64,000 bases of DNA from Clostridia bacterium (GCA_030527235.1 JAUNBL010000001.1:76911-140910); one strand, 5' to 3'; shown: positions 4,970 through 24,961, counted from the stretch's first letter. Notes: generated by a model from the letters alone, not told the origin. Numbers and translations: made by a program.

Positions 4970-7717
4970 GTTGCGATAGGTAAGCTATTGATATTATCTC
5001 TTGCTTTTCCCCCGCCTAACACTGTACGTGCGACTTTCACCGCATACAGCGTCCCATCATTTTACTTTAACTAATTGTCCTATGTATTTGCGTTTTAATC
5101 ATATTTATTCGTGTCATTTGATTTCTTCTAATCCTGCTAACACTCGCAGCTTGTTGAGTTTTTTCATTCCATTTTCGGATATTTTCAGACCTTTTACATA
5201 TTTTGAGATGACATCTGGACTTTTTGCGTGAATTAAAATGTGAATATCTTTTGTAACAAATATAAGATTTTTATATGTATCATCTCCGCCAAGCTCTCTC
5301 GGCATTTTATGATGACATTCCATATTTCCTATTGTTAGTTTCTGACCTGTTATTGCACATTTTCCGCACTGTCCCGTGTATAGTGAAATTCTATTATCAT
5401 TGTATTCTATTGACATATTTCTTGCTGGATTTTCAAGCATATATCTCATAATATCAATGTCAATATCAAAAGATTTATATATTTCATTTCTACCTTCAGG
5501 AGTGTATGAGCTAATGCTTGCCTTAATTCCTCTGGGCGTTCTGTATTTGCAGTATCCAATAGGAATGATTGGCTTGTCCATTAACCACCTTACTTGTTTT
5601 GATTTGCCATATCTATGTAAAAGAAATTTACTGTCAAATTTACCCTCTTTACTTGTATTGAGCCTATTTTGCATTGTATTTCTGACTTCAAATTGTATCT
5701 CTCTAAAATCTTCAAAAATATGCGTTGCTATACAGTAATAATTTTGAATACCTATTACTGTTGAGTTGTATTTACAAATTCTTGTGAATAACTGCATATC
5801 ATTTTCGGGCTTTTGAATTGCTTTGATTTGTTCTTTTAGCTTTTCTTTTGCCCTTAGACGAGCCTTATCACACATCTTTGTTTTTGCCACGTTCTTATTC
5901 GATTTTTCCCTAAGTTTCAATTTGAAGCCAAGAAATTCACTGTATTTTCTTTTGAGATTCGTTATACCTGTTTTATTTTCTGACACTTCTAATTTCAATC
6001 TGTGATTTAACCATTGGGTTGTTGCGAATTTAATTTTGTTCGCATCACTTCTTGTTTTACAGAATATCTTGAAGTCGTCAGCATATCTAACAATATACAT
6101 TTCTTTAAGGTTTGTAGTTCTTAAATCTCTGTATTCGTGCGCCAAATCTCTAACTCCTGATTTTCTTATTTGCATTTGCGGTGGTTTTTTCATTACTTTC
6201 CACTGCAAGTGCCATTGTGAAGCAATCCACCAATCCAATTCGTTTAATACAACATTTGCCAATAAAGGTGATAATATACCACCTTGCGGTGTTCCTTTTT
6301 GTGGGTATTCAACCGTTCCGTCAGGTAATAAAACTGGTGCTTTTAGCATTTGTTTTATTACTTGTATCAACTTTGTGTCGGTAATGCCTAAAGTCCATAG
6401 TTGCCTTAATAGTTTTCTGTGATTGACATTATCAAAGAAGCCTTTTATATCAACATCTACCACATATTGCATATGCGACCGTTGCATTAGTCTAACACTT
6501 TCGGCTATTGCATTTTCAGCACTTCGGTTAGGTCTAAATCCATAAGATTTTTCATAGAACTTTGCCTCACAAATTGGTTCAAGGATTTGCAAAATACATT
6601 GTTGTATTATCCTATCTTCAATACAAGGTATTCCAAGAGGTCTTTTCTTTCCGTTTGGTTTTGGAATTTCAACTCTTTTTACCATTTTGGGATGGTAGTT
6701 TTGCAACTTTCGCTGTATGTATGCCAAGAACATTTCTTCACTCATATTTTTAAAATATTCAATGTTTTTCTTGTCCGTTCCGGCAGTGTGACTACCCTTG
6801 TTTGCTTTTATAGACCTATATGCAAGTTTTATGTTGTTAGGTGATGTTATTAACTCCATTAAGTTATTGAAGTTATTTCCCTTTGAACTTTTTGCATACA
6901 ATTCATCTTGCAAAATCTGCATATCATAATAATTTGCGATTGTTGCCTTATGATTTTTCACATTCACATATACATCATCTCCTTACGGAGTATGACAATT
7001 TCTATTGTCCTACTCGACTTTGTGAATTAGTACATAGAATTTAGTCTTTGTAAAATGACTTGTGGCTATCCCTCCACTATGTTATCCATAGTTTCAACGG
7101 TACTGTGCCACTACCTTCAATTAGATAAAATTGAGTTCCCTCGACTTCCTTTGTTCAATTAGAGTCGTTTCCTCAATAACACTCCCTTGTAATAGGTTTG
7201 TTGATGAGTGTTCTAACCTTACCACGTTCCAATAATTCTATCATTAGTCATACTTAGGTGCTTCCTATGAGCCTGATTGCTTGATTGTGCCTCTAACACA
7301 ATAAGGATTTTCATAACATCGAGTTTTACTCACCCTCACAATCACTGCATTTAGCAGTATGCACATTTCTATACATTCGACTTATAGACCCGTACATTCA
7401 GAAGTTCGTCAGATATTCCTATCATTCTCACCATATATGACCGACACCCGACCTATCATACCCTCGACCACCTCTGGTTCGCATTTCCTCAGCATTTTCT
7501 GTTAGGGGGTACTCTCAGCCTTACTTCACCGAGCTTCGCACCTTAGTTGTATTACACCAACTAACGCACGTCGGAGTATCAGTGCAGGCGTTTCAAGGCG
7601 TTACTCTCTCATTCCACCTGTCAAATTATTAGTTCTCCTAATTTTCCTCATATTAAATTGTATATATAACTGAGGTTCGATTAGTGCGTAAGCTTTTCAC
7701 TTACGAACGTGTCGCAC
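4970..7717 (-). mobile_element. Group II intron (2,748 nt), probably bacterial class B, with intact intron-encoded protein
   Basis: 5' end GTGCGACACGTT at 7717; domain V GACGCTGTATGCGGTGAAAGTCGCACGTACAGTGT (~5019-5053); 3' end CCTATCGCAAC at 4970. Removal restores the host reading frame. Candidate EBS1 CGATGT (7316-7321) is complementary to the last 6 nt of exon 1 (ACATCG). Confidence 0.93.
5114..6967 (-). CDS. ltrA: Group II intron reverse transcriptase/maturase with HNH endonuclease
   Basis: RPLGIP, GTPQGGILSPLLAN, RYADDF; C-terminal CAITG...ECHHK...NL HNH domain. Confidence 0.96.
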   Translation of the reverse strand: MNVKNHKATIANYYDMQILQDELYAKSSKGNNFNNLMELITSPNNIKLAYRSIKANKGSHTAGTDKKNIEYFKNMSEEMFLAYIQRKLQNYHPKMVKRVEIPKPNGKKRPLGIPCIEDRIIQQCILQILEPICEAKFYEKSYGFRPNRSAENAIAESVRLMQRSHMQYVVDVDIKGFFDNVNHRKLLRQLWTLGITDTKLIQVIKQMLKAPVLLPDGTVEYPQKGTPQGGILSPLLANVVLNELDWWIASQWHLQWKVMKKPPQMQIRKSGVRDLAHEYRDLRTTNLKEMYIVRYADDFKIFCKTRSDANKIKFATTQWLNHRLKLEVSENKTGITNLKRKYSEFLGFKLKLREKSNKNVAKTKMCDKARLRAKEKLKEQIKAIQKPENDMQLFTRICKYNSTVIGIQNYYCIATHIFEDFREIQFEVRNTMQNRLNTSKEGKFDSKFLLHRYGKSKQVRWLMDKPIIPIGYCKYRTPRGIKASISSYTPEGRNEIYKSFDIDIDIMRYMLENPARNMSIEYNDNRISLYTGQCGKCAITGQKLTIGNMECHHKMPRELGGDDTYKNLIFVTKDIHILIHAKSPDVISKYVKGLKISENGMKKLNKLRVLAGLEEIK

Positions 7718-10700
7718 CGATGTAGTCCGCATCTCCGAGCGTTATAACCGTAACGCCCTGCTGCGGCTGTCCGTGCTGGTCGGTAACAGTTATAATAACG
7801 GGATATTCACTTGTCGGCTTAATGCCGTCCGGCAAATCAACAACAATATTGTTGCTCTCGCCGATGTAAACCTCGCAATTCGGAATAACGACATTCATTT
7901 TGTCGGTAGCCTTTACGACAAATGTGTTTTTCTTATCCTCGTCATCTTTGCCGACCGTGCCGCTGTTATCACCGGTAGAGGTTTTGTTGTTCGGAACTTT
8001 AAGCTGACCGTTTTCATCTGTTTTACCTGTTGCTGCGTTATTGTTTACATCATAGATAAAAATCTGCAACTCCGATTTCGGCTGCTGTGAATCCGTGTTA
8101 ATTGCAGTTATAATGGTTTGGTCTGCATAATCAAGCAGTCTGCCGCTTGGCAATTTGATAGTTACATTATCATTGATGTCAATGCTGATTTCACTATCAA
8201 AAATCGGTTTCCCGTTTGCGTTGGTTACAAGAATAGAAAAATCTCCGACTTTGGAATTACCGTCCTCGTCCGTGCGATCTTTCTCTACAAGCTGCGGAAT
8301 TGATGCTCTTGAAAGCACCTCACCGCAAGTCAAGCACTCAATATGTTTTTCTCCGGCGTGTTCGATAGTAGCAGGCTCGTCAATTATCCAATCGGACGGA
8401 TTATGTCCCGTCATATCCTTGTAATCTGCCGTATATGTTTTACCGCAGTTTTCGCAAGTGTAGACGGTATATCCGGAAGCCGTACAAGTCGGCTCGGTTA
8501 CATCAGCAATATAACTGTGATTGATTTTATCGGTGTAATCGCTGATATATTTATAATCACAGTTTTTACACTCATACACCGTATATCCGAGAGCCGTGCA
8601 AGTCGGAGCAGTAACGGTCTTTTTATAATCGTGCGCCGCCTTATCTACATAATCAGCCTTATAGCTATCTCCGCAGCTTTCACAGGTGTAAATTGTATAT
8701 CCCATTTCTGTGCAAGTGGGTGGAACTACGGTTTTATTGTAGGTGTGCTTTTCACAGTCGGTTAAATCGCCGATATACTCCTTGCCGCAGTCGGGGCAAG
8801 TATAAACGGTATAACCGTGTTCGGTGCAAGTTGGCGGAATAACCTTTTTGTCATAATTATGTTCTGTCTTATCAGTATAATCCGCAACATAGGTATCACC
8901 GCAGTCGGCACAAGTGTAGGTTGTAAATCCAAATTCCGTACAAGTCGGGTTTGTAATTTCTGCTTTGTAATTATGAGAGAGCTTGTCTGTATAATCTGAA
9001 ATAAATTCATCATCACAGTTTTTACAAGTGTATGTTGTGTATCCCATAGCCGTACAGCTCGGAGCAGATACGGTCTTTTTGTAATCGTGTTCTGCCTTAT
9101 CGGTGTAATCGCCAACATAGCTGTCATCACAGTTATCGCATTTGTATTCTGTATAGCCCATAGCTGTGCAAGTCGGAGCAACTATCTTTTCGGAATAGCT
9201 GTGTCCTTTCGGAAGTGCTAATACCGTACCACACTTTTCACAGGTTTGCGGCTCTGTGCAAGTAGCAGCCTCGCCGGGTGTGTGTCCCGTTGCAGATTCC
9301 GCTTTAATCATCTTTTCTTTACAGCCTGCATTGGTGCAGTGATACTCAATTACACCGTCTGACGTACAGGTAGATGAAGTTACAGAATGACCTCCATCCC
9401 AATTATGACCTGTCGGCTCTGTGTAATCCGATACAAATGTCTGTCCGCACATAGTACAAGTTGAGGTCGTATAGCCTTTATCGGTACAGGTCGGCTCTTT
9501 GGTGATACGCTCATAGGCGTGTGAAATAATCGGTGTCATATCGGTTATATATGAGTTGCCGCAGATTTCACAAGTATGATTTGTATAACCTGTCATTCTG
9601 CAAGTAGGCTGTACTTTTTCTGTCTTGTATTTATGCTCGCCGACGGGAGTGGTTTCCTCATAAAAGCTGCCGCACTTGTCGCAAAGGTTTAATTTCAAAC
9701 CACCCTGTTTACAAGTAGCTTCTCTTATGGTGATTGCCTTGTAATTATGCCCGGTTGCCTTTGTGTAATTTCTCTTATCGAGATTTCCGCAGCCATCGCA
9801 CTGCCAGCGTTCATAACCGAGGTTATCGCAAGAGGGAGCAACGGTTTCAAGGTAGCGGTAATCGTGTTCGTGCTTTTCGGGAAGTACGATTATTGTACTG
9901 TCATCGTCTTTCTTATCCTCCAAAAGCCACACATACGATACACCGTTTTCAACCATTGTTTCACCGTCGTATTTATAACTGATTTCATAGTACACGGGGT
10001 AATATCCGGCTTTGGTGTAATTCGGTGCGGAGGTCATATAACAGTCGGAGGCGGTTTTGCCGTAACGGATTTTTGTATGCACACCGCTGTCGGATAAATC
10101 GGATACGCTTACCGTATGTGCGTCACCGTCCGCCGTTCCGTAATAAGAAGATACAACCGACTTTGCCGCAACATATTCGCTTGTGGTATAGCCGCAGTCA
10201 TCGCACTTTTCCGTGAGATAAAAGCGGTTGTTGCCGATCTGTCCGTCAATCGTGCTTGTAAGGTCGTGCGACTCTTTCTTGATATTAGCCTTTGCATAAG
10301 TTCCTTTGCAGAATTGGCAGTATTCGCCCTTCTTTAATACGGTTGTGTGCTGATGTTCGTCATACAACTCGTAAGTCGTATTATCAAAGTCGATAAAAAA
10401 GTTGTGGTCGCAGGAGTTCAAGCCATAAACATTGTTGTTGAAGTTATATGCTCCCGAACCGTCAACGGAGTTAATTGTGCCGCAAGTCTGACACACAGAC
10501 TTTGTGTAATGATACCCCGTATAGCTTGCATCCACGCCGGGAGTGCCGCTGTCCGTGTTACCTTTTTTCTTGCCCTCAAGGTCATAACCGTCTGACCACT
10601 TAACACCGTGATTCATAGCCGTCTGTCCCGATTTGGTGTATTCGGGTACACGGTAGGTTAAAACAGTTGTGTGCTTATTGCATACCGGACACCACTGTGT

Positions 10701-10889
10701 TTCATAGGTTACGGTTGCGTTCATATCAAGTTCATTGGTTCTGTTATTTGTTTTCAGCCAATTATCCGCAGGATCTACATATGTGTTGCTTTGTGCCGCA
10801 AAGACCGACACGGGGAGTGTGCCTGCAACAAGAATAACTGCAAGCAGCATTGAAATAACCGATTTCATAGAAAAATGTTTGGTTTTCAT
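7718..10889 (-). CDS. Exon 1 of large surface protein: signal peptide, Cys-rich N-domain, 14 His/Cys repeats (spliced product ~1,822 aa)
   Basis: Signal peptide MKTKHF...VFA; tandem ~38-aa H.Y...PTC...GYT...CxxC repeats. The ORF-track end GATRS* is read-through into the intron. Confidence 0.9.
8290..9875 (-). repeat. Fourteen tandem ~38-aa His/Cys repeats (putative Zn-binding stalk)
   Basis: Example unit HDYKKTVTAPTCTALGYTVYECKNCDYKYISDYTDKIN; 14 units counted in translation; boundaries approximate. Confidence 0.85.
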
Positions 10890-14186: not shown

Positions 14187-15095
14187 TTATCTTTGCATAT
14201 CATCGTGCTTTTTTGACTTTTCTTTTAATTTATTTAAGGAAAAATCAATGATACGCTCTTTTCTTGCCGTGAGCATTGTTTTGTAAAACTCCTTTTGAAG
14301 CTCTGTTACGGTAGGCGTATTGTCTATAATTTCATAGATTTTCTTCATATCAATACGGCTTGCTATCCGTTTGAGAGCCTTGTTGCAGTCCGGAAATTTA
14401 CCCTCCGACAAAAATTTGAAGTAATTTATCTTTTTGCCGTTATAGGTTATAGCAGATAACGGTATATCGAAAATCCTGTGATTAAGCTCATTTTTGTCAC
14501 TTAATATCTTCTTCATTAAGTCCTCGTCCGCCTGTGGGTACAGACTGCTGCCGCAATCAAATACCGGGGCGAGCGTTACTTCATCGGTAGCGTTGTTATA
14601 TAAAAATCCCCAATTTCCGTTGTGTCTGTCCCAATTTCCTATCAGAGCGTCCACGATAAACATATCCCAAAACCTTGTTTTAAGTGTTTCGGAATCCATC
14701 GCTGTCTGTTCGTCAATGGTGGACAAAATATCTGCAAGCTCCGTACCGTAACCGTTTCTTTCGGAGTCAATAATGCGGTTTTTGAGTGATGCAAAATCTT
14801 GAAGCGTTATCCCTTGCGAGGTAAAATCCTTGCAGGCAACAACAACTTTTTCCTTGCCCTTGCTTGTGTAGGTTCCGATAACCGTTTCCTGTACGGGTAT
14901 TCCCACAGACTCAAAAACCTTGCAGCCGATGTATTCGCTGATACAGCTGTTTGTATAGCTCATTTCCTTATTTATTGTAGGGAACGGCGGAAATTTCAGC
15001 ATATATTGCTCGCCGTTATACAAAACCGAAATTTTACCGCCGTTGGCTCCGGCATAAGTTTTGTTTTTTTGCACCGCATTTGTAAAGTCTATCAT
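14187..15095 (-). CDS. CtkA/HipA-like Ser/Thr kinase (putative toxin)
   Basis: Gly-rich YAGANGGK loop, YMLKFP, SEYIG, DALIGNWDRHNGNWG catalytic loop, APVFDCGSSL. Confidence 0.85.
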   Translation of the reverse strand: MIDFTNAVQKNKTYAGANGGKISVLYNGEQYMLKFPPFPTINKEMSYTNSCISEYIGCKVFESVGIPVQETVIGTYTSKGKEKVVVACKDFTSQGITLQDFASLKNRIIDSERNGYGTELADILSTIDEQTAMDSETLKTRFWDMFIVDALIGNWDRHNGNWGFLYNNATDEVTLAPVFDCGSSLYPQADEDLMKKILSDKNELNHRIFDIPLSAITYNGKKINYFKFLSEGKFPDCNKALKRIASRIDMKKIYEIIDNTPTVTELQKEFYKTMLTARKERIIDFSLNKLKEKSKKHDDMQR

Positions 15096-15553
15096 ATATC
15101 ATCCTGCCTTTCCATTCTTAAATATTTATGCCGTAAGTACCACGCTTGCTCACTTGAAATGAGGTTTTCAACCTCTGCGGAATTTATATCGGCATTTAGC
15201 TCGCACCAGCATATATCCCAATGATAATCCTTTTCGCCGCTGTCTACAATTTTCCACGATTTTTTCATTCGTTCAAGCGATTCTGCAAGGTTCTTCGGCA
15301 GTCCGCACTCAAAGTGCGTTTCGTCCGTCGGCATACCTGTTTCAGAGCTGTATTCGCCGTTTTCAAGCTCCATTATATCCTCCATAGAGCAGTTCAAAGC
15401 TTTTGCTATCTGCTGTACGGTTTTTGCATTGCACTTTTGAATTGAGGTTTTCCCCGAACATATATCTATAACGGTTGTTTTCGGTACGCCGCTTATCTTT
15501 GAAAGCTGATACTTCGTAATATTTTCGCTGTTGAGTAAATTCTGTAATGTCAT
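15092..15553 (-). CDS. XRE/HipB-like HTH protein, putative antitoxin (start revised to ATG 15553)
   Basis: N-terminal HTH (ITKYQLSKISGVPKTTV...IAKALNCSMEDI); AAAGGA RBS; ATGA overlap with the kinase gene. Confidence 0.8.
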   Translation of the reverse strand: MTLQNLLNSENITKYQLSKISGVPKTTVIDICSGKTSIQKCNAKTVQQIAKALNCSMEDIMELENGEYSSETGMPTDETHFECGLPKNLAESLERMKKSWKIVDSGEKDYHWDICWCELNADINSAEVENLISSEQAWYLRHKYLRMERQDDI

Positions 15554-15588
15554 TTTCAGCACCGTCCTTTCAACATTATTATACATAT

Positions 15589-15656: not shown

Positions 15657-18600
15657 TTACCTTGCCATAGCGTATTCACGCTTTTGCTGCGGCGCTTGTG
15701 CATCGGAAACATCGGTGTCGATAACATTATCGTCCTTTTTATCCATTTTGAGCAGCGCTTCAACTGCGGCAAGGCGTTTTGTTTTTTCCTGCAATTCCGC
15801 CTCCTGCGGAAACGCCCGTTTTGCTTCAACCTTTGCGGTTTCGTACTGTGTATTCGTGTTTGCAAGCTCCTCTTTGGATATTTCAAGCCGTTTTTCAAAA
15901 CCGTCCAAAGCATTGTCGATACGCTGAATATTACCGAACACATCTGTTCCGAGTTCAACCTTGTGCGACAAGCTCCCGACAAGGGTTACATAGAACAATT
16001 TTTGAAAGCTGTCAAAGGAAAGCTCCATAGAAAAACCTCGGTAATCACCGATGTTCACCGGCTCCTCCGAGGTCATTTTCTTGCAGCGTTCAATAAGAGC
16101 ATTACCCGCTTTTTCCTTTTCAAAATATCCAAACCCGTCAATCGTCATTGTGTTGAATTTATCCTCAGCCTTCGGATACTGATTGACAGTTTCAATATCC
16201 TTTTCAAGACCTTTAATTCTTGCTGCGATTTCCGCAATTTGTTTGGGGTAGAATTTCACAACCTTATCTTCGAGGTCGTAAATCTGCGACATAAAGGACG
16301 ATTTTATCAGCTTCAGCTTGGACACTTCCATATCAAGCTCCATTTTCTCCTTGATGTGCGGATTACCTGTCGAGAGCGCCTTTATCTCCGCAAAGGACAG
16401 GGCGGTTGGGTCAATATCGTCCGCAACTCTGACGGGAGATTTTGAAGTAAATATCTGCGATATAAACTTCTGTTTCTGCTCGACGGTCTGCCACATATAA
16501 GTGTCAAAGGTTCCTTTGGTTACATAGCGGTAAATATGCACTTTCTCGTTTGTGTTGCCTTGTCTGATGATACGCCCGGCTCTCTGTTCGAGGTCTGCCG
16601 GACGCCACGGGCAGTCAAGGTCGTGCGAGGCATAGAGCAGTTTTTGCACATTTGTCCCTGCACCCATTTTTGAGGTAGAGCCGAGAAGCACACGAACATC
16701 ACCGCTTCGCACTTTCTTGAATAATTCATCTTTTTTAACCTCTGTGTTTGCATCGTGAATAAAAGCAACCTCATTTTCGGGTATGCCTTTTTGGAGCAGT
16801 TTTTCCCGTATGCTGTTATATACCGAGAATGTACCGTCCGATTTCGGTGTAGATAAATCACAGAACAAAAGCTGTGTAGCTTTTCTATCTGCTGTGTCTT
16901 TCCATATATCATACACACGGTTTGCACATACCGATACCTTTGAGGTTTCATCATCGGGGAGCATAGGATTTATCATTCTTTGGTCGAGTGCCAATTTTCT
17001 GCCGTCGTTTGTTATTTTCAGCATATTGTCAACACTCGGATCAACAGTCCTTTTACGCACTTCCTCAGCTCGTTCTCCGAGGTCTGCCACCATATCCTTT
17101 TGGAATTGGGTCGGCTCTGCAACCTCGTTGTGATATTCAACCTCCGGCACGGGCAAATTCAACATATCCGCCGTCTGAATATCGGCAACCTCTTTGAACA
17201 TCGCAATGAGTTCGGGCAAGTTAAAGAATTTTGCAAACCTCGTTTTCATACGATAACCACTGCCTTCGGGTGCAAGCTCCATTGCCGATACGGTTTCACC
17301 AAAGGTAGACGCCCAGCTATCGAAGTGCTGCAAACCTCTGTCTTGGAGCGATTTATACTGCAAATACCTCTGCATAGTATATAACTCAACCATACTGTTT
17401 GATACAGGAGTTCCCGTTGCAAATATAACACCCTTGCCGCCCGTAAGCTCGTCAAGATACTGCGTTTTCATAAACAGGTCGCTTGATTTTTGTGCTTCGG
17501 TTTGGGCAATACCGCCGACATTCCGCATTTTTGTGTAAAGGAAAAGGTTTTTGTAAAAGTGTGCTTCGTCCACAAACACTCTGTCAACACCGATTTCTTC
17601 AAAGGTAACAACATCGTCCTTGCGTTCTTGGTCATTGAGCTTTTTTATCTTTGCTTCAAGCCCACGCTTTGTCTTTTCCATCTGCTTTACGGTGTAACGC
17701 TCCGCATTTTCGGCCTTGGCTTCGGCTATGCCGTTCAAAATTTCATCAAGCTGGTTTTGAAGTATGGCTTTCTGCCGCTCTGCCGACATCGGTATTTTCT
17801 CAAACTGACTATGCCCGATAATGACCGCATCATAATCGCCCGTTGCGATACGACCGCAGAATTTTTTGCGGTTTTTCATCTCAAAGTCCTTTTTTGTTGC
17901 AACAAGAATATTTGCCGCCGGATATAACTGCAAAAATTCGCTTGCCCATTGCTCGGTCAAGTGGTTGGGTACTACAAACAGCGATTTATTGCAAAGTCCG
18001 AGCCGCCGTGATTCCATTGCTGCCGCAACCATAGTCCAAGTCTTGCCGGCGCCGACTACATGACCGAGTAAAGAATTGCCGCCGTACATAATTCGTGCAA
18101 CAGCGTCCTTTTGGTGTTTCCTCAGAGCTATTTCGGGGTTTATTCCGTTGAAGGTTATATGGCTGCCGTCATACTCACGGGGACGGATAGAGTTAAACCG
18201 AACATTGTAGATTTTACATAAGTCATCACGCCTGTCGGGGTCTTTCCATATCCAATCCTCAAAGGCTTGCTTGATTGACGCCTGCTTTTGCTGGGCGATG
18301 GTGGTTTCCTTGATATTCAGCTTTGCAACCTTGTTACCGTTTTCGTCGTAAATATAATCAAAGATACGCACATCACGCAGATTAAGCGAATCCTCAATAA
18401 TTTTGTAAGCGCTGATACGGCTTGTACCATAGGTGTTGGTAGCCTTAACGCCCTTATCGGCGCTCTTGCCTTGAATATTCCACTCACCCGTAAGATTTGA
18501 ATATTTGACCTCGATTTTGCTTTGCGCATAATAATTCGGCGAAAGAAGCTCAAACACAAACTCCTCGATATACTTTTCGGGTATCCAAGTCGTGCCGAGC

Positions 18601-21600
18601 TTTACGGAAATTTCACCCGGCGTTAAGTCTTTCGGCTGTACCTTTTCAAGATATTCCGCATTGACACGGTATTCGGAGCTGTCTTTTGAAAACTGCTCCG
18701 CTTGACTTAATTTTGCACGAACATTGCCGGATAAATATTCATCGGAGGTTAGGTATTTCGGCTCGCTTTCGGAGAATGTTTCGTGTTCGGGGTTTAAGAA
18801 GATTACACCCTTTAAGTCCGCATAAAGCTCCTGTTCGGTCTTGCCCGACAGTGTTTCCATAAAGGGTATGTCAATTTTCGCCTTTTCCGCCAATGACACC
18901 GCCAACGCTTCATCTGCCGTATCAACCTTTGTTACCTCGTGTTTGGCTCGGATAGTTCTTTTGGTGAACATATCCGCCTTGCGTTCAAGGTTTCCGTTCT
19001 CATCAAGAATTTCCAGAGAACATAAAAGGAAGTAACTGCTGTCCTCCGAAAAGGCAAGAGCATTGCCACGGGAATTGATAAGACCGTATTTTTTTGTATA
19101 GTCATCATAGAGCGTGTTCAGCTTTGCCTGTTGTGCCTTAATTTCATTATCGGAATAGTTTTCCGTCTGATATTCGATTAAAGTCCTCACGCAGTCCCGA
19201 AGCTCTATCATACCTTTTACTCGGTTTTCAGCCGTTGCGTTCAGCTCAATCTTACGCATAAGGCTGTTTTCTCTGAAATACACCTCTCCGTCAACAACCG
19301 TAAAGCTGAAATTGCGAACATTCGGGTCTGCCGGGATTGTTATTTCCTCGTCATTTGAAACATCGTCAAATTCGTATTCCGTTATGCTTGCGTGAATATT
19401 TTGAATCGCACCGTCAAGCTGCTCGGCAAGTGAAATATCCTCATTCGGCTCACAGGTAAGGGCAGGACCGAAAGGACCGCTGACCTCTTTGAGTTCGCCC
19501 ATAACCATATCGGGGTTGTCAAGAAAATACTGATTTATTGGCTGTCCTGTTTCGTGTTGACCGACATTTACCCATTCCGGCATAATATCCGTCATACGCT
19601 CTCTTTTCTGCAAAAACAAAATATCCGCCGTAACCTCTGTCCCGGCATTTTTCTTAAAGGTGTTATTCGGCAAGCGTATTGCACCGATTAAATCGGCTCT
19701 TTGAGCTATATATCGACGCACCTTTGAATTACGCTTATCCATAGTGCCGGAGGAGGTGATAAAAGCGATAACGCCGCCCGGTCGCACCTTATCCAAAGTT
19801 TTCGCAAAAAAGTAGTCGTGAATGAGGAAATTATGCTTGTTGTACTTTCTGTCAAGCAGCTTAAAATCTCCGAAAGGCACATTGCCGATTGCCACATCAA
19901 AGAAGCTGTCGGGAAGCTCGGAGTTTTCATAGCCTTGTATCGCAACGGAATTTTTCTGATAAAGTTGTCCGGCAATTCTTCCCGTAATACTGTCAATTTC
20001 CACGCCATACATTTTACTGCCGCTCATACTCTCCGGCATAAGTCCCATAAAATTACCTATCCCACACGACGGCTCCAAGATGTTACCCTGCGTAAATCCC
20101 ATATTGGAAAGCGCCTTATACATTGCCTTGATTACAACAGGCGGAGTGAAGTGTGCGGTAAGTGTTGACGCTCTCGCTTGCTCATACTCATCGGGGGAAA
20201 GAGTGGCGTATAGCTCCTTAAATTCCTCCGACCAATTTTCTTTGGATTCATCAAAAGCGTCCGCAAGACCGCCCCAGCCGACATACTGTGATAATATCTC
20301 CTGTTCTTCGGGAGTAGCAAGACGGTGTTCAAATTCGAGATTATGAAGTAAATTTACGGCTTCAACATTCCTCTTAAATTTCTCTTTCGGTGTACCGTAA
20401 CCGAGTTCATCATTTGTAATTTGAAAATTGCGTCTGTCCGACAACGGTATTTCGGGATATACAACCGTGTTTTGCACTCTCTGCGGCTTTGCTTTTTGAA
20501 ATTCTGCCGTAAGCTGCGGTTTTGCCTGCTCTGCAATTATACTCTTGACAAAATCTATGCTCTCACTGCGGAATATGGGAAAACCCGTACTGTTTTGAAA
20601 GGTTATATCCTTTAATGACACCTTGTTAAAATCAGTATTTACGCTGTCTACAACAAATTTGCGGTCATCAATGGTGAGTTCCGTTCCGATAAGGTTTTCG
20701 GCGGTTTCGGTTACATTATCAATTTGCGATGTTTCCGTCTGTTGTGCTTGTGCAGGCACAACCTTATCCGCTGACAAAAGCCGTTTATAGTTTCTATCCT
20801 CATCAGCAATGACAACATCATATCCGGCATAGAGCAGCTTGTTGACATATTCGTCCGTAATGTGTTTCGGAAAGCCACACATCGGGTAGCGTGTTCCGTC
20901 GATTTCCTTTGAGATTACAGTTATATCAAGCACATCTGCCGCCTTTTGTGCGTCATCTCCGTAGACTTCATAAAAATCACCGAGTGGAATAAGGGCAACG
21001 GTTTTTGAGCCGTTATCGTCTTTGTGAAGCTCTGCAAGATATTCGGAGAACGGCTGCTGCGGTTGATTTTCTTTTTCAAACCGTTCTTCGATTAAAGCTC
21101 TATATAAAGCCATATCATCATCTGTCAACAGGTCGTTTCGACTGTAATCAAGGTTAATTTCAACATAACCGATATGTGACTCCTTTTCATCATCGGACAT
21201 TTTTGAAATTCGTGTTTGTATATTTTCATTAACCGAGGTTATTTCCACACCGTAACGAGCTGCATATTTTTTCAGATTTTCAACCGTTTCCGCATCATAT
21301 GCAAGTCCTGTTGAAAGACCGCCGTTTTCGTCAAAGGAAAGTATATCGTTCAGTATATGGCGGTATATTTCATCACCGCTGTATATCTCTCTGCCGATTT
21401 CCGCTTTCAAAGTGTTTCCTTCAAAAAATGCTTTATTATCATCGGACACAGACTTCAAGAATTTATCAACCGTATTTTCTTCGTCGGCATCGTGTATAGC
21501 GTAAATATATCCGTTATCCGAAAGTATCTCTGCATATTCCTCCAAATCGTATGCCGGAAAGCTGATTGCTCCATCCGACACGGAAAGTCCGAGAATTTCA

Positions 21601-24284
21601 GACACGGCGGTTGCTTCATCTTCGTGCAATTCATAGGTATCTCCGTGTTTTTCAAAGGATACGCATTTTATATCGGATATTTCCTCCTCAAAATGATAAC
21701 TGCCGTTTCTGTCATAAACGCTCACTGCCGCACCGCTGACTTTTTTCATTGCATTTGCAATAACATATCTGTCGTATTCATCACGGAGCATATCATAAAC
21801 TTCAAATTCATTGGCATCAAGCAGCATTGAAGCACCGTTATTCGCAAATATATCTTTCTCATATTTGTCAATGGTGTTTACAAAATAAACAATGCGTTTC
21901 GGCAAAGTAGCCGCCTTTTCTTTATCAGACATATCCTTAACACTTTCAACAAACGCTATTTGTTCACTGCGTATACGCTGTTGTTCCCGTTCTTTCAAAA
22001 TGTCGGGAATATTTTTCTCTTTATCCTCTGCGGTGAAATATTTATCCTCGTCAATAAGACGGGTGATACGCTTTTCAAGGTCATTCCATTTGACAAGTGT
22101 TTTCCCGTAAGGCTTTGAATAATCGCCAAGACTGAATTCAATACCTTTTCTGCTGTTTTGAAAGTGAATATAATTATGAGAACCACCATAGGTAGTACCG
22201 TGCAGCTTTTTCAAGTAGTCAACCCGTTCCTTGCGGTCGGTATGCTCTCTGAAAAACTCCGCCGTATCATACTTTCTGTAAATACCCTCGTCAATAAAGT
22301 ATTTATCGATAAAGTCCTCTGTGATAAATCTGTCAGCAGCCGTATCGGTAAGCCTTTGCGAAGTATATGTTTTACGCTCAAGCTGTAAATCGGAAAGCTG
22401 TTTATACACACGCTCCGGTCGATACATACGAAAACGCATTATATCCTCATTTTTGTTTCGCTCGACAAGAGCCGCCGTTATTTCCGTAAGCTCCGATAAT
22501 TGCTCCGGATTATTAAGCATTTCCGTGATACGCTTTGTGCTGTCGGGAAAACCGCCCTTAAACCATTCCTCATTGAACATATCTTTTAGGTCGGGAAATT
22601 CGTCATAATCAAGGTCTTTCTCCATATACCAAAATGCGTCTGCTGCCTTTTTCAGTTCATAACTCCGCATTTGTAAAAGCACACTTGACGGTGCATATCT
22701 ACCCAAATCCAAAAGCTCGTCAATGCGTTTTGCCGCATCCTCCCAAGAAATGAGCTGAGCAGTGTTTATATTTGCCGTATTACCGTATGAAATACGAATA
22801 CCTTGCTCACTCCACCAAGCAGACACATTCCGTCCGTCAACAACAAAGCCTTTACCGGAAGTACCGTAAAGGCTTTTAAGAAATTCTGATTTATCCGCAA
22901 GAGATTTATTCTTTGAAAATTCTATGCAAATATCTAAACGGCTTTGAGGGTTTAATGAGCCATCGCATAAAACTTCGTCAATAATCTGCCCCGGCATAGA
23001 AAAAGCAGCACCGAAAATTTCGTGTGCTGCTCTCTGTACGGCTTCTCTCTGTTGTTCTTCTGTCGGAATGAGGTCGAACAGACTTAACTGTAAACCACCT
23101 CCGGCAGTACGATTTCTTCCGCTGAATGGAGTAGGTTGTTCATCAGTCCCGTCCACATCATCGGGTCTTTTGCTTTCAGTTCCTCGTTCACGCCCTCTGT
23201 CTGTGCCAATTCCCGGACTATCATCTGTATCTGTTCTGTCGCTGTCCTCTGTACTTCCAACAGATGCTCCGTTATTTTGCCTGTTATCATCAAGCTCGTG
23301 TATAGGCTCGGTCTGTGATTTTTGAGGAATTTCCTCCGCATCTGTCCGTATTTGCCTATCTGTGCTTCGGTCTGCGGTGCTGTCAAGTTCGGTATCAGAT
23401 ACCCGTTTACTTCCGTGTATGTTATCTCTGTCATAATTATCCGTCCTTTCATTATTTATTGTTGGTGCGTCTTTTTCTTTGACTTCATTATACACCGCAT
23501 TTTCCTTTTCCGCAAAATTTTTTCGGGCATTTATTTCTTCACGGACCTCCGCACGGATGGTTTCGGAGATATTCCGCAGCGTTTCCTCCGATATGCTTGA
23601 TACCGCATTACCCAAAACCGAAAGTGCCGGAATTGTGTTGAAGTTCATAATATGCGGAAAGTCCTCACGCTCAAACACTTCATCAGCGTTGATTCCGAGC
23701 CTTCGCAATACCGTATATGCAATACTTGTTTCCGCCGTCTGCTGAAATTCAACATCAATATTTAATTCGTCCAAGCCGTCCAAAAAGCTGTTTTCTTTTG
23801 CGTATTTGAGTTCCGAAAGGTAGTCGGCTTTGCTGTCCTCTACCGCATTTTGTGCTGCACTGATAACGGCATCCGTAATACTGCTTTTGGATTTCAGTTC
23901 ACCGAAAGAATTTTCAAGAGTTTCGATAATAGCTTCGTCAAACCGACTGTTGTATTGCCATAACCGCACTCTTGTATTGTCAAGGCTGTGCGTGTCGGAA
24001 ATATCGAAAACATAGTCAAGATATTGTCCTCTGTCGCCCTCACGGAGCAGGGCAATACCTTTAGCGCCACGGTTTATCCAAGACTTTAACCGTTTATTCC
24101 AAATATCAATGCTTGCACACGCCGTTGCGTCCGGGCGTTGAGCATAAATAAATAGCTGGTCTTGAAAGGAATATTTATATTGCCACGCCGCACTTTTCAA
24201 AAAAGCCGTCCAATTCTCATAATCGGCAAGGCATTTGCCGATTTCGTTCGACAATGCAGATATATTTTGCAGCTTGCTTGCCAT
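15657..24284 (-). CDS. Giant polyvalent protein (2,875 aa): ArdC-like N-domain, two MutS-I-like domains, adenine methyltransferase, SNF2-like helicase (DarB-like)
   Basis: YKYSFQDQLFIYAQRPDATACA (ArdC-N-like); LGDFYEVYGDDA (MutS-I-like); ILEPSCGIGNF and IGNVPF (MTase motifs I and IV); HVVGAGKT, VDEAH, ATGTP, QRAGRIIRQGN (helicase motifs). Confidence 0.92.
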   Translation of the reverse strand: MASKLQNISALSNEIGKCLADYENWTAFLKSAAWQYKYSFQDQLFIYAQRPDATACASIDIWNKRLKSWINRGAKGIALLREGDRGQYLDYVFDISDTHSLDNTRVRLWQYNSRFDEAIIETLENSFGELKSKSSITDAVISAAQNAVEDSKADYLSELKYAKENSFLDGLDELNIDVEFQQTAETSIAYTVLRRLGINADEVFEREDFPHIMNFNTIPALSVLGNAVSSISEETLRNISETIRAEVREEINARKNFAEKENAVYNEVKEKDAPTINNERTDNYDRDNIHGSKRVSDTELDSTADRSTDRQIRTDAEEIPQKSQTEPIHELDDNRQNNGASVGSTEDSDRTDTDDSPGIGTDRGRERGTESKRPDDVDGTDEQPTPFSGRNRTAGGGLQLSLFDLIPTEEQQREAVQRAAHEIFGAAFSMPGQIIDEVLCDGSLNPQSRLDICIEFSKNKSLADKSEFLKSLYGTSGKGFVVDGRNVSAWWSEQGIRISYGNTANINTAQLISWEDAAKRIDELLDLGRYAPSSVLLQMRSYELKKAADAFWYMEKDLDYDEFPDLKDMFNEEWFKGGFPDSTKRITEMLNNPEQLSELTEITAALVERNKNEDIMRFRMYRPERVYKQLSDLQLERKTYTSQRLTDTAADRFITEDFIDKYFIDEGIYRKYDTAEFFREHTDRKERVDYLKKLHGTTYGGSHNYIHFQNSRKGIEFSLGDYSKPYGKTLVKWNDLEKRITRLIDEDKYFTAEDKEKNIPDILKEREQQRIRSEQIAFVESVKDMSDKEKAATLPKRIVYFVNTIDKYEKDIFANNGASMLLDANEFEVYDMLRDEYDRYVIANAMKKVSGAAVSVYDRNGSYHFEEEISDIKCVSFEKHGDTYELHEDEATAVSEILGLSVSDGAISFPAYDLEEYAEILSDNGYIYAIHDADEENTVDKFLKSVSDDNKAFFEGNTLKAEIGREIYSGDEIYRHILNDILSFDENGGLSTGLAYDAETVENLKKYAARYGVEITSVNENIQTRISKMSDDEKESHIGYVEINLDYSRNDLLTDDDMALYRALIEERFEKENQPQQPFSEYLAELHKDDNGSKTVALIPLGDFYEVYGDDAQKAADVLDITVISKEIDGTRYPMCGFPKHITDEYVNKLLYAGYDVVIADEDRNYKRLLSADKVVPAQAQQTETSQIDNVTETAENLIGTELTIDDRKFVVDSVNTDFNKVSLKDITFQNSTGFPIFRSESIDFVKSIIAEQAKPQLTAEFQKAKPQRVQNTVVYPEIPLSDRRNFQITNDELGYGTPKEKFKRNVEAVNLLHNLEFEHRLATPEEQEILSQYVGWGGLADAFDESKENWSEEFKELYATLSPDEYEQARASTLTAHFTPPVVIKAMYKALSNMGFTQGNILEPSCGIGNFMGLMPESMSGSKMYGVEIDSITGRIAGQLYQKNSVAIQGYENSELPDSFFDVAIGNVPFGDFKLLDRKYNKHNFLIHDYFFAKTLDKVRPGGVIAFITSSGTMDKRNSKVRRYIAQRADLIGAIRLPNNTFKKNAGTEVTADILFLQKRERMTDIMPEWVNVGQHETGQPINQYFLDNPDMVMGELKEVSGPFGPALTCEPNEDISLAEQLDGAIQNIHASITEYEFDDVSNDEEITIPADPNVRNFSFTVVDGEVYFRENSLMRKIELNATAENRVKGMIELRDCVRTLIEYQTENYSDNEIKAQQAKLNTLYDDYTKKYGLINSRGNALAFSEDSSYFLLCSLEILDENGNLERKADMFTKRTIRAKHEVTKVDTADEALAVSLAEKAKIDIPFMETLSGKTEQELYADLKGVIFLNPEHETFSESEPKYLTSDEYLSGNVRAKLSQAEQFSKDSSEYRVNAEYLEKVQPKDLTPGEISVKLGTTWIPEKYIEEFVFELLSPNYYAQSKIEVKYSNLTGEWNIQGKSADKGVKATNTYGTSRISAYKIIEDSLNLRDVRIFDYIYDENGNKVAKLNIKETTIAQQKQASIKQAFEDWIWKDPDRRDDLCKIYNVRFNSIRPREYDGSHITFNGINPEIALRKHQKDAVARIMYGGNSLLGHVVGAGKTWTMVAAAMESRRLGLCNKSLFVVPNHLTEQWASEFLQLYPAANILVATKKDFEMKNRKKFCGRIATGDYDAVIIGHSQFEKIPMSAERQKAILQNQLDEILNGIAEAKAENAERYTVKQMEKTKRGLEAKIKKLNDQERKDDVVTFEEIGVDRVFVDEAHFYKNLFLYTKMRNVGGIAQTEAQKSSDLFMKTQYLDELTGGKGVIFATGTPVSNSMVELYTMQRYLQYKSLQDRGLQHFDSWASTFGETVSAMELAPEGSGYRMKTRFAKFFNLPELIAMFKEVADIQTADMLNLPVPEVEYHNEVAEPTQFQKDMVADLGERAEEVRKRTVDPSVDNMLKITNDGRKLALDQRMINPMLPDDETSKVSVCANRVYDIWKDTADRKATQLLFCDLSTPKSDGTFSVYNSIREKLLQKGIPENEVAFIHDANTEVKKDELFKKVRSGDVRVLLGSTSKMGAGTNVQKLLYASHDLDCPWRPADLEQRAGRIIRQGNTNEKVHIYRYVTKGTFDTYMWQTVEQKQKFISQIFTSKSPVRVADDIDPTALSFAEIKALSTGNPHIKEKMELDMEVSKLKLIKSSFMSQIYDLEDKVVKFYPKQIAEIAARIKGLEKDIETVNQYPKAEDKFNTMTIDGFGYFEKEKAGNALIERCKKMTSEEPVNIGDYRGFSMELSFDSFQKLFYVTLVGSLSHKVELGTDVFGNIQRIDNALDGFEKRLEISKEELANTNTQYETAKVEAKRAFPQEAELQEKTKRLAAVEALLKMDKKDDNVIDTDVSDAQAPQQKREYAMAR
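23084..23434 (-). CDS. tnpV: TnpV-family protein, 116 aa, nested in the +1 frame of the giant helicase-methylase gene
   Basis: ITYTEVNGYLIPNL...IGKYGQMRRKFLK.HRP..Y...EGVNEELKAKDPMMWTGLMNN...AEEIV matches the TnpV pattern over its full length; AAAGGA RBS upstream of ATG 23434. Confidence 0.8.
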   Translation of the reverse strand: MTEITYTEVNGYLIPNLTAPQTEAQIGKYGQMRRKFLKNHRPSLYTSLMITGKITEHLLEVQRTATEQIQMIVRELAQTEGVNEELKAKDPMMWTGLMNNLLHSAEEIVLPEVVYS

Positions 24285-24318
24285 TTGATTTCACCTCCAA
24301 TAATTTATTTTGCAAATA

Positions 24319-24471
24319 TTATTTATCCTCTTTTTCGATAGGCACATATTTTGTGCAAGTTTGTCCGTTATGAAATTCCATATACGGACACATAGGTTCG
24401 TGTGGGTCAAGTTTCAATGCGTCCGCACCTGTCTTGCAGTTCGGGCATAATTGTTTTTTATCATCATTCAT
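24319..24471 (-). CDS. Small Cys-rich protein, 50 aa (MNDDKKQLCPNCKTG...CPY...CTKY)
   Basis: AAGGAG RBS, four Cys, fills the gap upstream of the helicase gene; below ORF-track cutoff. Confidence 0.65.
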   Translation of the reverse strand: MNDDKKQLCPNCKTGADALKLDPHEPMCPYMEFHNGQTCTKYVPIEKEDK

Positions 24472-24501
24472 TTTTTATCGCTCCTTTGTTTTTTTGCATA
24501 G

Positions 24502-24537
24502 AAAAAGAGCATTGAAATTTGCGCTTTCAATGCTCTT
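24502..24537 (-). terminator. Intrinsic terminator
   Basis: Perfect 13-bp stem AAGAGCATTGAAA/TTTCAATGCTCTT, then T-run on minus strand. Confidence 0.75.
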
Positions 24538-24557
24538 ATCGTGTTTGCTATTAAATT

Positions 24558-24932
24558 TTATCTGCACATCTGCATCGGCTCACGAAGCCGCTTTGCCATT
24601 TCAATGCCCTCGGCTGCTGTTGTGATTTCGCCGTTTTCTATCATTTCGAGCAGCTCCGCACGGTGTTTTGCATTTAAGCAATACACGCTCCGGCACAGCC
24701 TTTGAACAGTTCCGAGAGTATCACGCTCGGTATTGATAAGCGTTTTCACGATTTCGCCGACTTCATCATTTGCGTTAAGCTGAATTTGAAGTGTACGGCG
24801 GTTATCGAGGTATATCATACTCGGCACTATCAGTATGCCGATGTTCTGCAAGCTGTCACGGAGTTCGGTTTCTCTGCAAGTCATATCTACAAGTAAGTTG
24901 TTTGTTATAAAGTTTATTTTAGCTGTCATCAT
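24558..24932 (-). CDS. Hypothetical protein (~124 aa) with own promoter and terminator
   Basis: AAGGAG RBS; ORF flanked by a promoter and a terminator. Confidence 0.7.
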   Translation of the reverse strand: MMTAKINFITNNLLVDMTCRETELRDSLQNIGILIVPSMIYLDNRRTLQIQLNANDEVGEIVKTLINTERDTLGTVQRLCRSVYCLNAKHRAELLEMIENGEITTAAEGIEMAKRLREPMQMCR

Positions 24933-24961
24933 AAAAATCACGCTCCTTTTTCTGTACTTTT

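Follow-up and report, generated by a model that had tools for sequence, protein, structure and literature searches.

In phage lambda, Rz1 lies wholly within Rz on the same strand and in the +1 frame, is read from its own start signals, and encodes a product that forms a complex with the Rz product. In Bacillus subtilis, comS is a small out-of-frame gene within the giant multi-domain gene srfAB that is missed by gene callers and expressed from the mRNA of its host; its product, ComS, has 46 amino acids (aa), a narrow distribution and a role in an unrelated pathway, and the DNA that it shares with srfAB encodes a folded enzyme domain. Gene callers forbid nested same-strand genes of this kind, and to our knowledge very few long, fully nested same-strand genes with proven selection on both frames have been described in bacteria. 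Here we describe a gene of the TnpV family (tnpV; Pfam PF14198) that is nested within an 8.6-kb gene in a stretch of 64,000 nucleotides (nt) from a Clostridia bacterium (GCA_030527235.1, JAUNBL010000001.1:76911-140910), hereafter the window, with positions counted from its first letter. On sequence evidence the two genes are a real, conserved and fully nested pair, in which the host frame appears as the overprinted linker of a polyvalent anti-restriction protein. What is new here is the linkage of nested tnpV to the ArdC-like N-terminal domain (N-domain) of the host protein, together with a predicted complex of TnpV and that domain.

The locus resembles Rz/Rz1 in that the inner gene is complete, lies on the same strand in the +1 frame and has its own start signals, here at the level of sequence. 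It is unlike Rz/Rz1 in that the host is not a lysis gene but encodes a multi-enzyme protein of 2875 aa, from a conjugative or mobilizable element, that the embedded TnpV belongs to an old, widespread and folded family, that the host frame looks passive and disordered, and that the interaction of the two products is a prediction. With comS and srfAB it shares a small out-of-frame gene within a giant multi-domain gene of a Bacillota member. TnpV, by contrast with ComS, is a protein of 116 aa from a Pfam family whose 324 matches are spread over 151 of 400 Clostridia genomes; its gene overlaps a linker, and its predicted binding partner is the host protein itself.

The host protein has the makeup of the polyvalent proteins of conjugative elements, which according to Iyer et al. 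2017 (PMC5512222) likewise join an N-terminal ArdC-N-type header, a MutS-I domain and a methylase-helicase dyad in one polypeptide on a mobile element. That paper mentions neither 'TnpV' nor 'overlapping' nor 'frameshift'. A metallopeptidase motif often follows ArdC-N; the host N-domain is without one. For ArdC of plasmid R388, one report (PMC7213743) gives as the likely single-stranded DNA (ssDNA) site a positively charged groove between two domains, and describes a protruding beta-hairpin. The host N-domain is like ArdC of R388 (6i89) in its two-domain fold and in the protruding beta-hairpin of its N-terminal half; unlike ArdC, with which it shares 9% sequence identity, it has no Pfam ArdC match and no HExxH motif and is fused to ~2600 further residues. 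We know of no small partner of ArdC. The inner protein, for its part, has in common with the stand-alone TnpV of Tn4451-type elements its PF14198 family, a conserved hairpin motif and an invariant Trp. In a survey of the Faecalibacterium mobilome, which leaves 'overlap' unmentioned, PF14198 proteins occur in 16/24 MOBQ2 mobilizable elements (PMC12084326), and a C. difficile paper repeats a postulated Xis-like role for Tn4451 TnpV (PMC3158075). No published description of tnpV nesting was found by a search that most subscription journals lie beyond.

A preliminary description of the window had claimed a complete TnpV-family gene on the same strand as its host, in the +1 frame and with its own Shine-Dalgarno sequence; the map of open reading frames (ORFs), the Pfam search and the translation bear out every part of this. 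As listed, the inner ORF spans 23084..23452 on the minus strand and has 122 aa counted from the ATG at 23452. The start that is conserved lies at 23434, the second ATG, and from it a protein of 116 aa (MTEITY...) is read. The upstream ATG is replaced by ACG in five relatives (L011-L015), while the second (MTEITY) is retained in all relatives compared. Since the first ATG is lost and the second always kept, the gene was taken as 23434..23084, with 116 codons, which agrees with the 116-aa product from 23434, and not 122 aa from 23452, that had been proposed. The offset from the host start (24284-23434) is 850 nt, which places tnpV in the +1 frame, wholly within 15657-24284 and, like its host, on the minus strand. 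The inner ORF, whose translation runs MKGRIIMTEITYTEVNGYLIPNL..., matches PF14198 over the full profile (positions 1-111 of 111) with an E value of 6.4e-38 and 129.6 bits against a cut-off of 27; the hidden Markov model (HMM) check proposed at the outset thus returned a full-length match. NCBIfam holds no TnpV family. In an alignment of 124 TnpV sequences (A1), W94 is invariant and Y6, P15, G27, Y45, L58, E84, K87, M98 and E107 are conserved in at least 90% of sequences, and the protein of the window has all of these residues.

The start at 23434 and its Shine-Dalgarno are conserved among relatives, as the preliminary description would lead one to expect. With a Shine-Dalgarno defined as a match of at least 4 nt to AAGGAGGTG at -20 to -4, 53 of 54 distinct nested starts have one together with an ATG, vs 22.5% of 3907 other ATGs within the same host ORFs. 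The host frame reads the tnpV Shine-Dalgarno as the conserved Glu-Arg of a 'NERT' sequence just 5' of the overlap. A search for an internal promoter gave 3 sigma-70-like sites in 22900-24700 vs 3.8 ± 2.0 in shuffles, and so no enrichment.

Nested and stand-alone genes were compared over 178 recovered full-length TnpV copies. Among nested copies, differences in the TnpV frame are most frequent at codon position 3, followed by position 1 and then position 2, in every divergence bin; at 80-90% protein identity they amount to 0.129, 0.094 and 0.237 at positions 1, 2 and 3. This order is the signature of a translated gene. The full-length gene is intact in 65 nested copies whose pairwise identity extends from 28 to 100%. 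The host frame is also open over tnpV: it has no stop in 66/66 nested copies, unlike the same frame of stand-alone genes, which has 1-19 stops in 113/113 copies. The chance of an open host frame was computed by exact dynamic programming with the TnpV protein held fixed and with the codon usage of the host ORF; the probability of a stop-free host frame is 3.0e-4 in the window and, for the first set with its 24 nested loci, ranges from 5.8e-6 to 1.2e-3. In the seven stand-alone genes from the same set, the frame used by the host is interrupted by 6-11 stops. The third frame is never open, because the TnpV protein sequence itself forces stops there (probability 0). At equal protein identity, nested copies differ from each other less at position 3 than stand-alone ones do (0.237 vs 0.289, 0.332 vs 0.422 and 0.492 vs 0.575), which fits a second, weaker constraint. 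Both frames are therefore conserved and under selection, and the dual coding of tnpV and the host frame is almost certainly real.

Frequent stops in the +1 frame of close homologs or an assembly artefact could also have undone the dual coding. No stop was present in this frame in any of the 66 nested homologs, and the same layout, with the same long ORF, recurs in dozens of independent assemblies. In contigs of four further DNA runs, insertions or deletions (indels) within tnpV occur only as two pairs, each of which spans 3-5 nt and leaves both frames intact; these contigs are fragmented and none covers the entire stretch. The many independent assemblies and the frame-restoring nature of the indels together exclude an assembly artefact. 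The two pairs of one-base indels, again 3-5 nt apart, are in contigs of run X5, at 23231-23234 and 23394-23399.

Across the overlap the host frame reads ERTDNYDRDNIHGSKRVSDTELDSTADRSTDRQ... and includes ...NERTDNYDRDNIHGSKRVSDTELDSTADRSTDRQ.... It had been described as a polar linker behind an ArdC-like domain with both frames open, and translation, composition and fold confirm this. In 60 distinct nested hosts, the residues D, E, R, K, S, T, N, Q, G and P make up 78.7% of the linkers vs 55.6% of the N-domain, and hydrophobic residues make up 13.0% vs 34.3%; host residues 260-283, at the end of the N-domain, already have a predicted local distance difference test (pLDDT) score below 50. Within the overlap, a TnpV identity of 0.84 goes with a host-frame amino-acid identity of 0.69, and one of 0.55 with 0.34. 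The same frame in stand-alone genes, where it is untranslated, has identities of 0.665 and 0.293, barely below those of the nested host frame. This near-equality points to TnpV as the constrained frame, which the host linker follows passively, and suggests that the main constraint on the linker is the absence of stop codons.

Nesting is widespread and is maintained in many gut bacteria. A TnpV protein search with one genome per species gave 31 close loci, of which 24 are nested in the same relative frame, down to 42% identity, and seven are stand-alone. The TnpV of L001, from an isolate, is 94% identical. The wider survey of how often tnpV overlaps such genes, which had been suggested, was run on the best-scoring 150 of the 324 PF14198 matches: 41 of 145 full-length TnpV copies are nested and 104 stand-alone. 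DNA was obtained for 147 of the 150 places; L094, L115 and L163 were dropped because of stops or insufficient length, and L117 holds two copies. The nested fraction is rough, as it refers to the best-scoring half of the matches and to related elements. When divergent nested ORFs were searched against Pfam, TnpV ranked first in 9/9 and exceeded the cut-off in 6/9. On a 62-kb Clostridium perfringens plasmid, the gene of a 'helicase-related protein' contains in its +1 frame a TnpV ORF of 119 aa (Pfam E 4.7e-24) that is left unannotated. In a Monoglobus record TnpV is annotated, the surrounding giant gene is absent from the gene table and the host region consists of two ORFs. The public records checked (L183, NZ_OY725736.1; L184, NZ_CP102305.1) are thus annotated in opposite ways, and the pair is mishandled in both, one being without the giant gene and the other without TnpV. 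A phage collection yielded 49 records with TnpV-like sequence, and the 15 listed are unannotated fragments.

The preliminary description had further proposed that dual coding locks TnpV to its host enzyme, and this is supported by a close linkage of nested tnpV to the N-domain. An N-domain profile built from 36 sequences (A2) matches 66/66 nested loci vs 2/112 stand-alone loci; beside the other 110 stand-alone loci no ArdC-like domain is found. The start of tnpV always lies ~275-340 codons into the host frame. When the same profile was run on the same Clostridia genome sample, 84/399 genomes were matched, 73 of which are also TnpV-positive; of the remaining 11, all but G391 and G262 are matched only briefly, over the first 85-105 positions of the profile. 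From this search, 40 N-domain loci were chosen as the long listed matches outside the TnpV-based loci, with the short matches and the intermediate ones G171:C20, G242:C1 and G262:C61 left out. A TnpV HMM match follows the N-domain directly in the +1 frame in 35/40 of them, in 34 cases inside an open host ORF and in one cut by the contig end. As for the other five, L209 has the same 138-aa +1 ORF as L210, below the HMM threshold; the host of L186 is truncated; the sequence of L204 stops before a judgement is possible; and L201 and L205 have intact hosts (L201:54-1899, L205:86-1949) in which no more than ~40 residues separate the N-domain from QISLF or QLSIF. The latter two represent either the state before tnpV capture or clean losses.

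Host residues 1-700 are matched by 4849 of 7989 scored candidate proteins at E <= 1e-3. Within this region the N-domain is ArdC-like by fold and not by sequence, as comparisons of its AlphaFold2 (AF2) model show. The best Protein Data Bank (PDB) match of the model is ArdC of R388 (6i89), with a Foldseek E value of 8.4e-3, vs 0.39 for the next unrelated entry. The VIA comparison with 6i89 gives Z 10.9 and a root-mean-square deviation of 4.9 Å over 212/274 aligned residues, and the next unrelated chain has Z 5.7. At the level of sequence, a Pfam search of the N-domain at E <= 10 returned two noise rows and no ArdC match, and the best hit among PDB sequences has an E value of just 0.33. The HExxH metalloprotease motif is absent from the host protein and was found in 1/36 of the N-domain homologs in A2; the helical half of the N-domain nevertheless superposes on the C-terminal domain of ArdC in VIA.

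The AF2 model of TnpV (pLDDT 92) has a beta-hairpin at residues 6-15 followed by five helices. As nesting is tied to the N-domain and not to the downstream enzymes, the N-domain was chosen for co-folding with TnpV, with alignments A2 and A1. Three runs gave ipSAE scores of 0.89, 0.88 and 0.90, vs 0.00 for the best of three controls, with contact agreement of at least 94% and a partner pLDDT of at least 89. The corresponding mark is reached by 116/157 solved complexes and 2/215 mismatched pairs, a calibration that is only rough here, since the alignments were custom and unpaired, and the score itself expresses model confidence. The predicted interface comprises TnpV residues 2-27 and 41-55 and N-domain residues 4-16, 39-49, 70-93 (the beta-hairpin), 155-162 and 218-226, so that both halves of the N-domain are contacted; conserved residues within it are Y6, P15 and G27 of TnpV and Q49, G76, I77 and G225 of the N-domain. 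On these models we give the predicted binding of TnpV to the N-domain somewhat better than even odds, and the partner of TnpV in the host protein is most likely this domain and not the methylase or helicase part. Two further loci contain short nested TnpV-like ORFs of 93-94 aa (L206:774-1055, L211:835-1113) that start at a GKYG motif; these are without the N-terminal hairpin that the co-fold places at the interface.

The explanation that we favour, at a probability of roughly 0.6, combines nesting, internal initiation and an N-domain partner. The 8.6-kb gene would belong to an integrated element, conjugative or mobilizable, and encode its polyvalent protein for establishment and anti-restriction, and the DNA of the linker between its ArdC-like N-domain and the remainder would double as a complete TnpV gene in the +1 frame. 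TnpV would be translated from the same mRNA by ribosomes that start internally, at the Shine-Dalgarno and ATG of tnpV (23450-23432); its frame would be the older and constrained one, and the host frame a nearly passive spacer. The protein would then bind the ArdC-like N-domain encoded immediately upstream, with its N-terminal beta-hairpin and first helices set against the beta-hairpin of the N-domain and touching both of its halves. TnpV may in this way gate or complete the ssDNA groove. That TnpV gates the groove is a tentative idea and on balance a doubtful one; it is suggested by the predicted contacts to both halves and by the ssDNA site proposed for ArdC. Through nesting, the N-domain and its small partner would be inherited, transcribed and made together, and assembly could take place in cis. 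TnpV is accordingly most likely, as far as the models go, the small partner of the ArdC-like header domain behind which it is directly nested. A broader version, in which TnpV is a dedicated small subunit for ArdC-like headers, nested in polyvalent proteins for assembly in cis, and in which the hundreds of stand-alone tnpV genes on mobilizable transposons and integrative mobilizable elements supply the same hairpin to capture the header of a helper in trans, seems quite improbable; if true, hitch-hiking DNA would borrow the anti-restriction cargo of a helper element.

Several results weigh against this explanation, besides the rough calibration of the co-fold. No PDB entry matched TnpV in Foldseek at E <= 0.001 (best 3.8), and the best of 48,161 chains in VIA has Z 6.2, within the noise for helical models, so that the function of TnpV is unreadable from its fold in the absence of an informative relative. 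In nested TnpV, conservation is no higher at the interface than at other positions (mean frequency of the top residue 0.53 vs 0.63), and the hairpin motif Y6, D11, Y12, P15, L17 and G27 is equally conserved in stand-alone TnpVs. No RNA run containing 22800-24400 was listed, and the surveyed loci are related mobile elements and not independent samples. L201 and L205 have no nested ORF in their short linkers, 78 of 151 TnpV-positive genomes are without any N-domain match, and the 104 stand-alone copies of the survey have no adjoining N-domain. TnpV therefore cannot depend on the N-domain everywhere; stand-alone TnpV must have another partner, or its ArdC-like header is supplied by another element. 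Lastly, the 104 neighbour ORFs of stand-alone tnpV that were scanned repeatedly include Mob_Pre relaxases, large serine recombinases and genes for restriction or defence.

These last points are shared by the most serious alternative, in which tnpV is real but does not act on the host protein, serving instead another step of transfer or integration, for example with a relaxase or, as proposed for Tn4451, a serine recombinase, and uses the linker as a compact, co-regulated site. This is possible and, in our judgement, rather unlikely. It would account for most TnpV copies being stand-alone, for their neighbourhoods of Mob_Pre relaxases, large serine recombinases and varied cargo with no ArdC-like domain noted among the 104 ORFs, for the frequency of PF14198 proteins in the Faecalibacterium MOBQ2 elements (PMC12084326), and for the Xis-like role postulated in Tn4451 (PMC3158075). 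It leaves unexplained why nested tnpV always lies directly behind the same N-domain, while the host sequence downstream differs by clade, and why the co-fold reaches 0.89 with the N-domain vs 0.00 with controls.

The remaining alternatives are all very improbable. The long ORF might not be one protein, the ArdC-like and methylase-helicase parts being made apart and continuity across tnpV going unused. A few loci look like this: L154 (G112:C52) has a single host-frame stop 41 nt into tnpV, such that its ArdC-like protein would end within the overlap, the hosts of L148, L176 and L117 end 329-1304 nt after the tnpV start, and in Monoglobus the host region, which the gene table omits, is split into two ORFs. 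A frame without a use would not, however, remain open as it does in 66/66 nested copies against a chance of 6e-6 to 1e-3 and against the 1-19 stops of stand-alone genes, and host ORFs of 2000-3000 codons are found in most loci with enough sequence; we consider this possibility slight. Still less probable is a programmed +1 ribosomal frameshift that would yield an ArdC-like-TnpV fusion. The two frames do stand at +1 to each other, and the Shine-Dalgarno-like element just before the frame change is reminiscent of the frameshift site of prfB. In the window, though, the TnpV frame has a TAA 24 nt upstream of its ATG, the open stretch before the start is variable among relatives (total ORF length 115 to 211 aa), and all nested loci compared have a Met codon at the homologous start; wherever an ATG was looked for near the expected start, its Shine-Dalgarno spacing was typical of initiation. 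Least credible of all is that a captured tnpV persists as a decaying relic, or that faulty assembly produced the overlap; this has in its favour only the general rarity of long same-strand overlaps in bacteria, and it is contradicted by the intact tnpV of the 65 nested copies at 28-100% identity with their coding-type substitution pattern, by the dozens of independent assemblies, and by the four DNA runs with only paired, frame-restoring indels.

Stand-alone TnpV genes are more numerous and more diverse than nested ones. Together with the constraint on the TnpV frame, this suggests that the linker was overprinted on an existing tnpV, probably by way of gene fusion. A quick maximum-likelihood tree (171 rows, 116 columns; the careful search was unfinished) places nested copies in a clade of 45 rows with 43 nested, in a second with 10, in a third with 3, and as two singles. 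It needs at least 7 state changes, vs a mean of 48.7 in shuffles, none of 500 of which is as low; of these, at least 2 are required by well-supported branches. A separate ancestral order of ArdC-like gene, tnpV and large gene was not found among the loci fetched; nearest to it are L154, with its one stop, and L116, in which an N-domain fragment precedes a stand-alone tnpV.

The overlap described here covers 351 bases, is conserved across a bacterial class and involves roughly 1/4 of the TnpV copies sampled. Overprinting would have proceeded in an unusual direction, in that the new and disordered stretch, a linker within a giant fusion protein, arose on the template of an old, folded gene. TnpV gains its first concrete partner candidate, the ArdC-like domain of anti-restriction polyvalent proteins, by prediction, and the pair bears on how conjugative DNA evades restriction in gut bacteria.

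The tnpV gene is carried by a mobile element. RepA_N, ParA, ParB, a pair of helix-turn-helix (HTH) and HipA_C genes, a MobA/VirD2-type relaxase and DUF3801 surround the host gene, and the region lies beside guaA. The 26 ORFs scanned from 1490 to 41972 yielded no identified type IV secretion genes, and the element may thus depend on mobilization instead of being self-transmissible. The HTH protein and the HipA_C-like kinase are probably a toxin-antitoxin pair of the element. The positions of these and of the other features are collected in Table 1.

Table 1. Features of the window around the nested tnpV gene
Feature	Position	Strand	Details
Host gene, 2875-aa polyvalent protein	15657..24284	-	ArdC-like N-domain, linker, MutS_I, N6-adenine methylase, SNF2/ResIII helicase
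ArdC-like N-domain, host residues 1-283 (folded to ~260)	23436..24284	-	AF2 model, pLDDT 87.6
Host linker, residues 284-398	23091..23435	-	same bases as tnpV; polar, predicted disordered
tnpV Shine-Dalgarno GAAAGGA	23444-23450	-	9 nt 5' of ATG 23434
Nested tnpV	23084..23434	-	116 codons and TAA stop (23084-23086); +1 frame of host
QLSLF motif, host residues 399-403	23076..23090	-	regular-expression match; first codons overlap last tnpV codons and stop
MutS domain I, host residues 1092-1165	20790..21011	-	PF01624, E 1.4e-21
Eco57I-type N6-adenine methylase motif region, host residues 1459-1536	19677..19910	-	PF07669, E 1.5e-5, 25.6 bits (cut-off 25.3)
SNF2/ResIII helicase core and Helicase_C, host residues ~2052-2614	16443..18131	-	PF04851, PF00176, PF00271 (Pfam span 2052-2576)
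HTH protein	15092-15586	-	directly downstream of giant gene
HipA_C-like kinase	14187-15095	-	beside HTH protein, downstream of giant gene
1062-aa ORF	7701-10889	-	adjoins DUF3801 and relaxase; no Pfam match at E <= 0.001
Group II intron-type reverse transcriptase ORF, 617 aa	5114-6967	-	inside element

Downstream of tnpV the host sequence varies by clade (...LQL/SLFD..., ...RL/EYYDR...SLPFFG... and others). A Q[LIVM][STDN][LIMF]F pattern occurs within -4 to +45 residues of the tnpV stop in 39/60 distinct nested hosts. We take the QLSLF of the host to resemble the bacterial beta-clamp-binding consensus; this likeness, if true, would link the polyvalent protein to the replisome. In the helicase region, NCBIfam gave partial matches at host residues 2492-2614. 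Upstream of the giant gene, between its start and the preceding ORF (24558-24941), a hairpin with a 13-bp stem and a T-run lies at 24505-24537 and looks like a terminator on both strands.

Around the stand-alone tnpV loci L036-L111, the neighbours include XhoI, ScaI and BglII endonucleases, D12 and C5 methylases and type I R subunits, as well as Shedu SduA, Kiwa KwaB, Abi_2, TIR and pPIWI_RE; no ArdC-like domain was noted in the 104 ORFs scanned. In these settings tnpV looks like a marker of small mobilizable elements with a cargo of defence genes.

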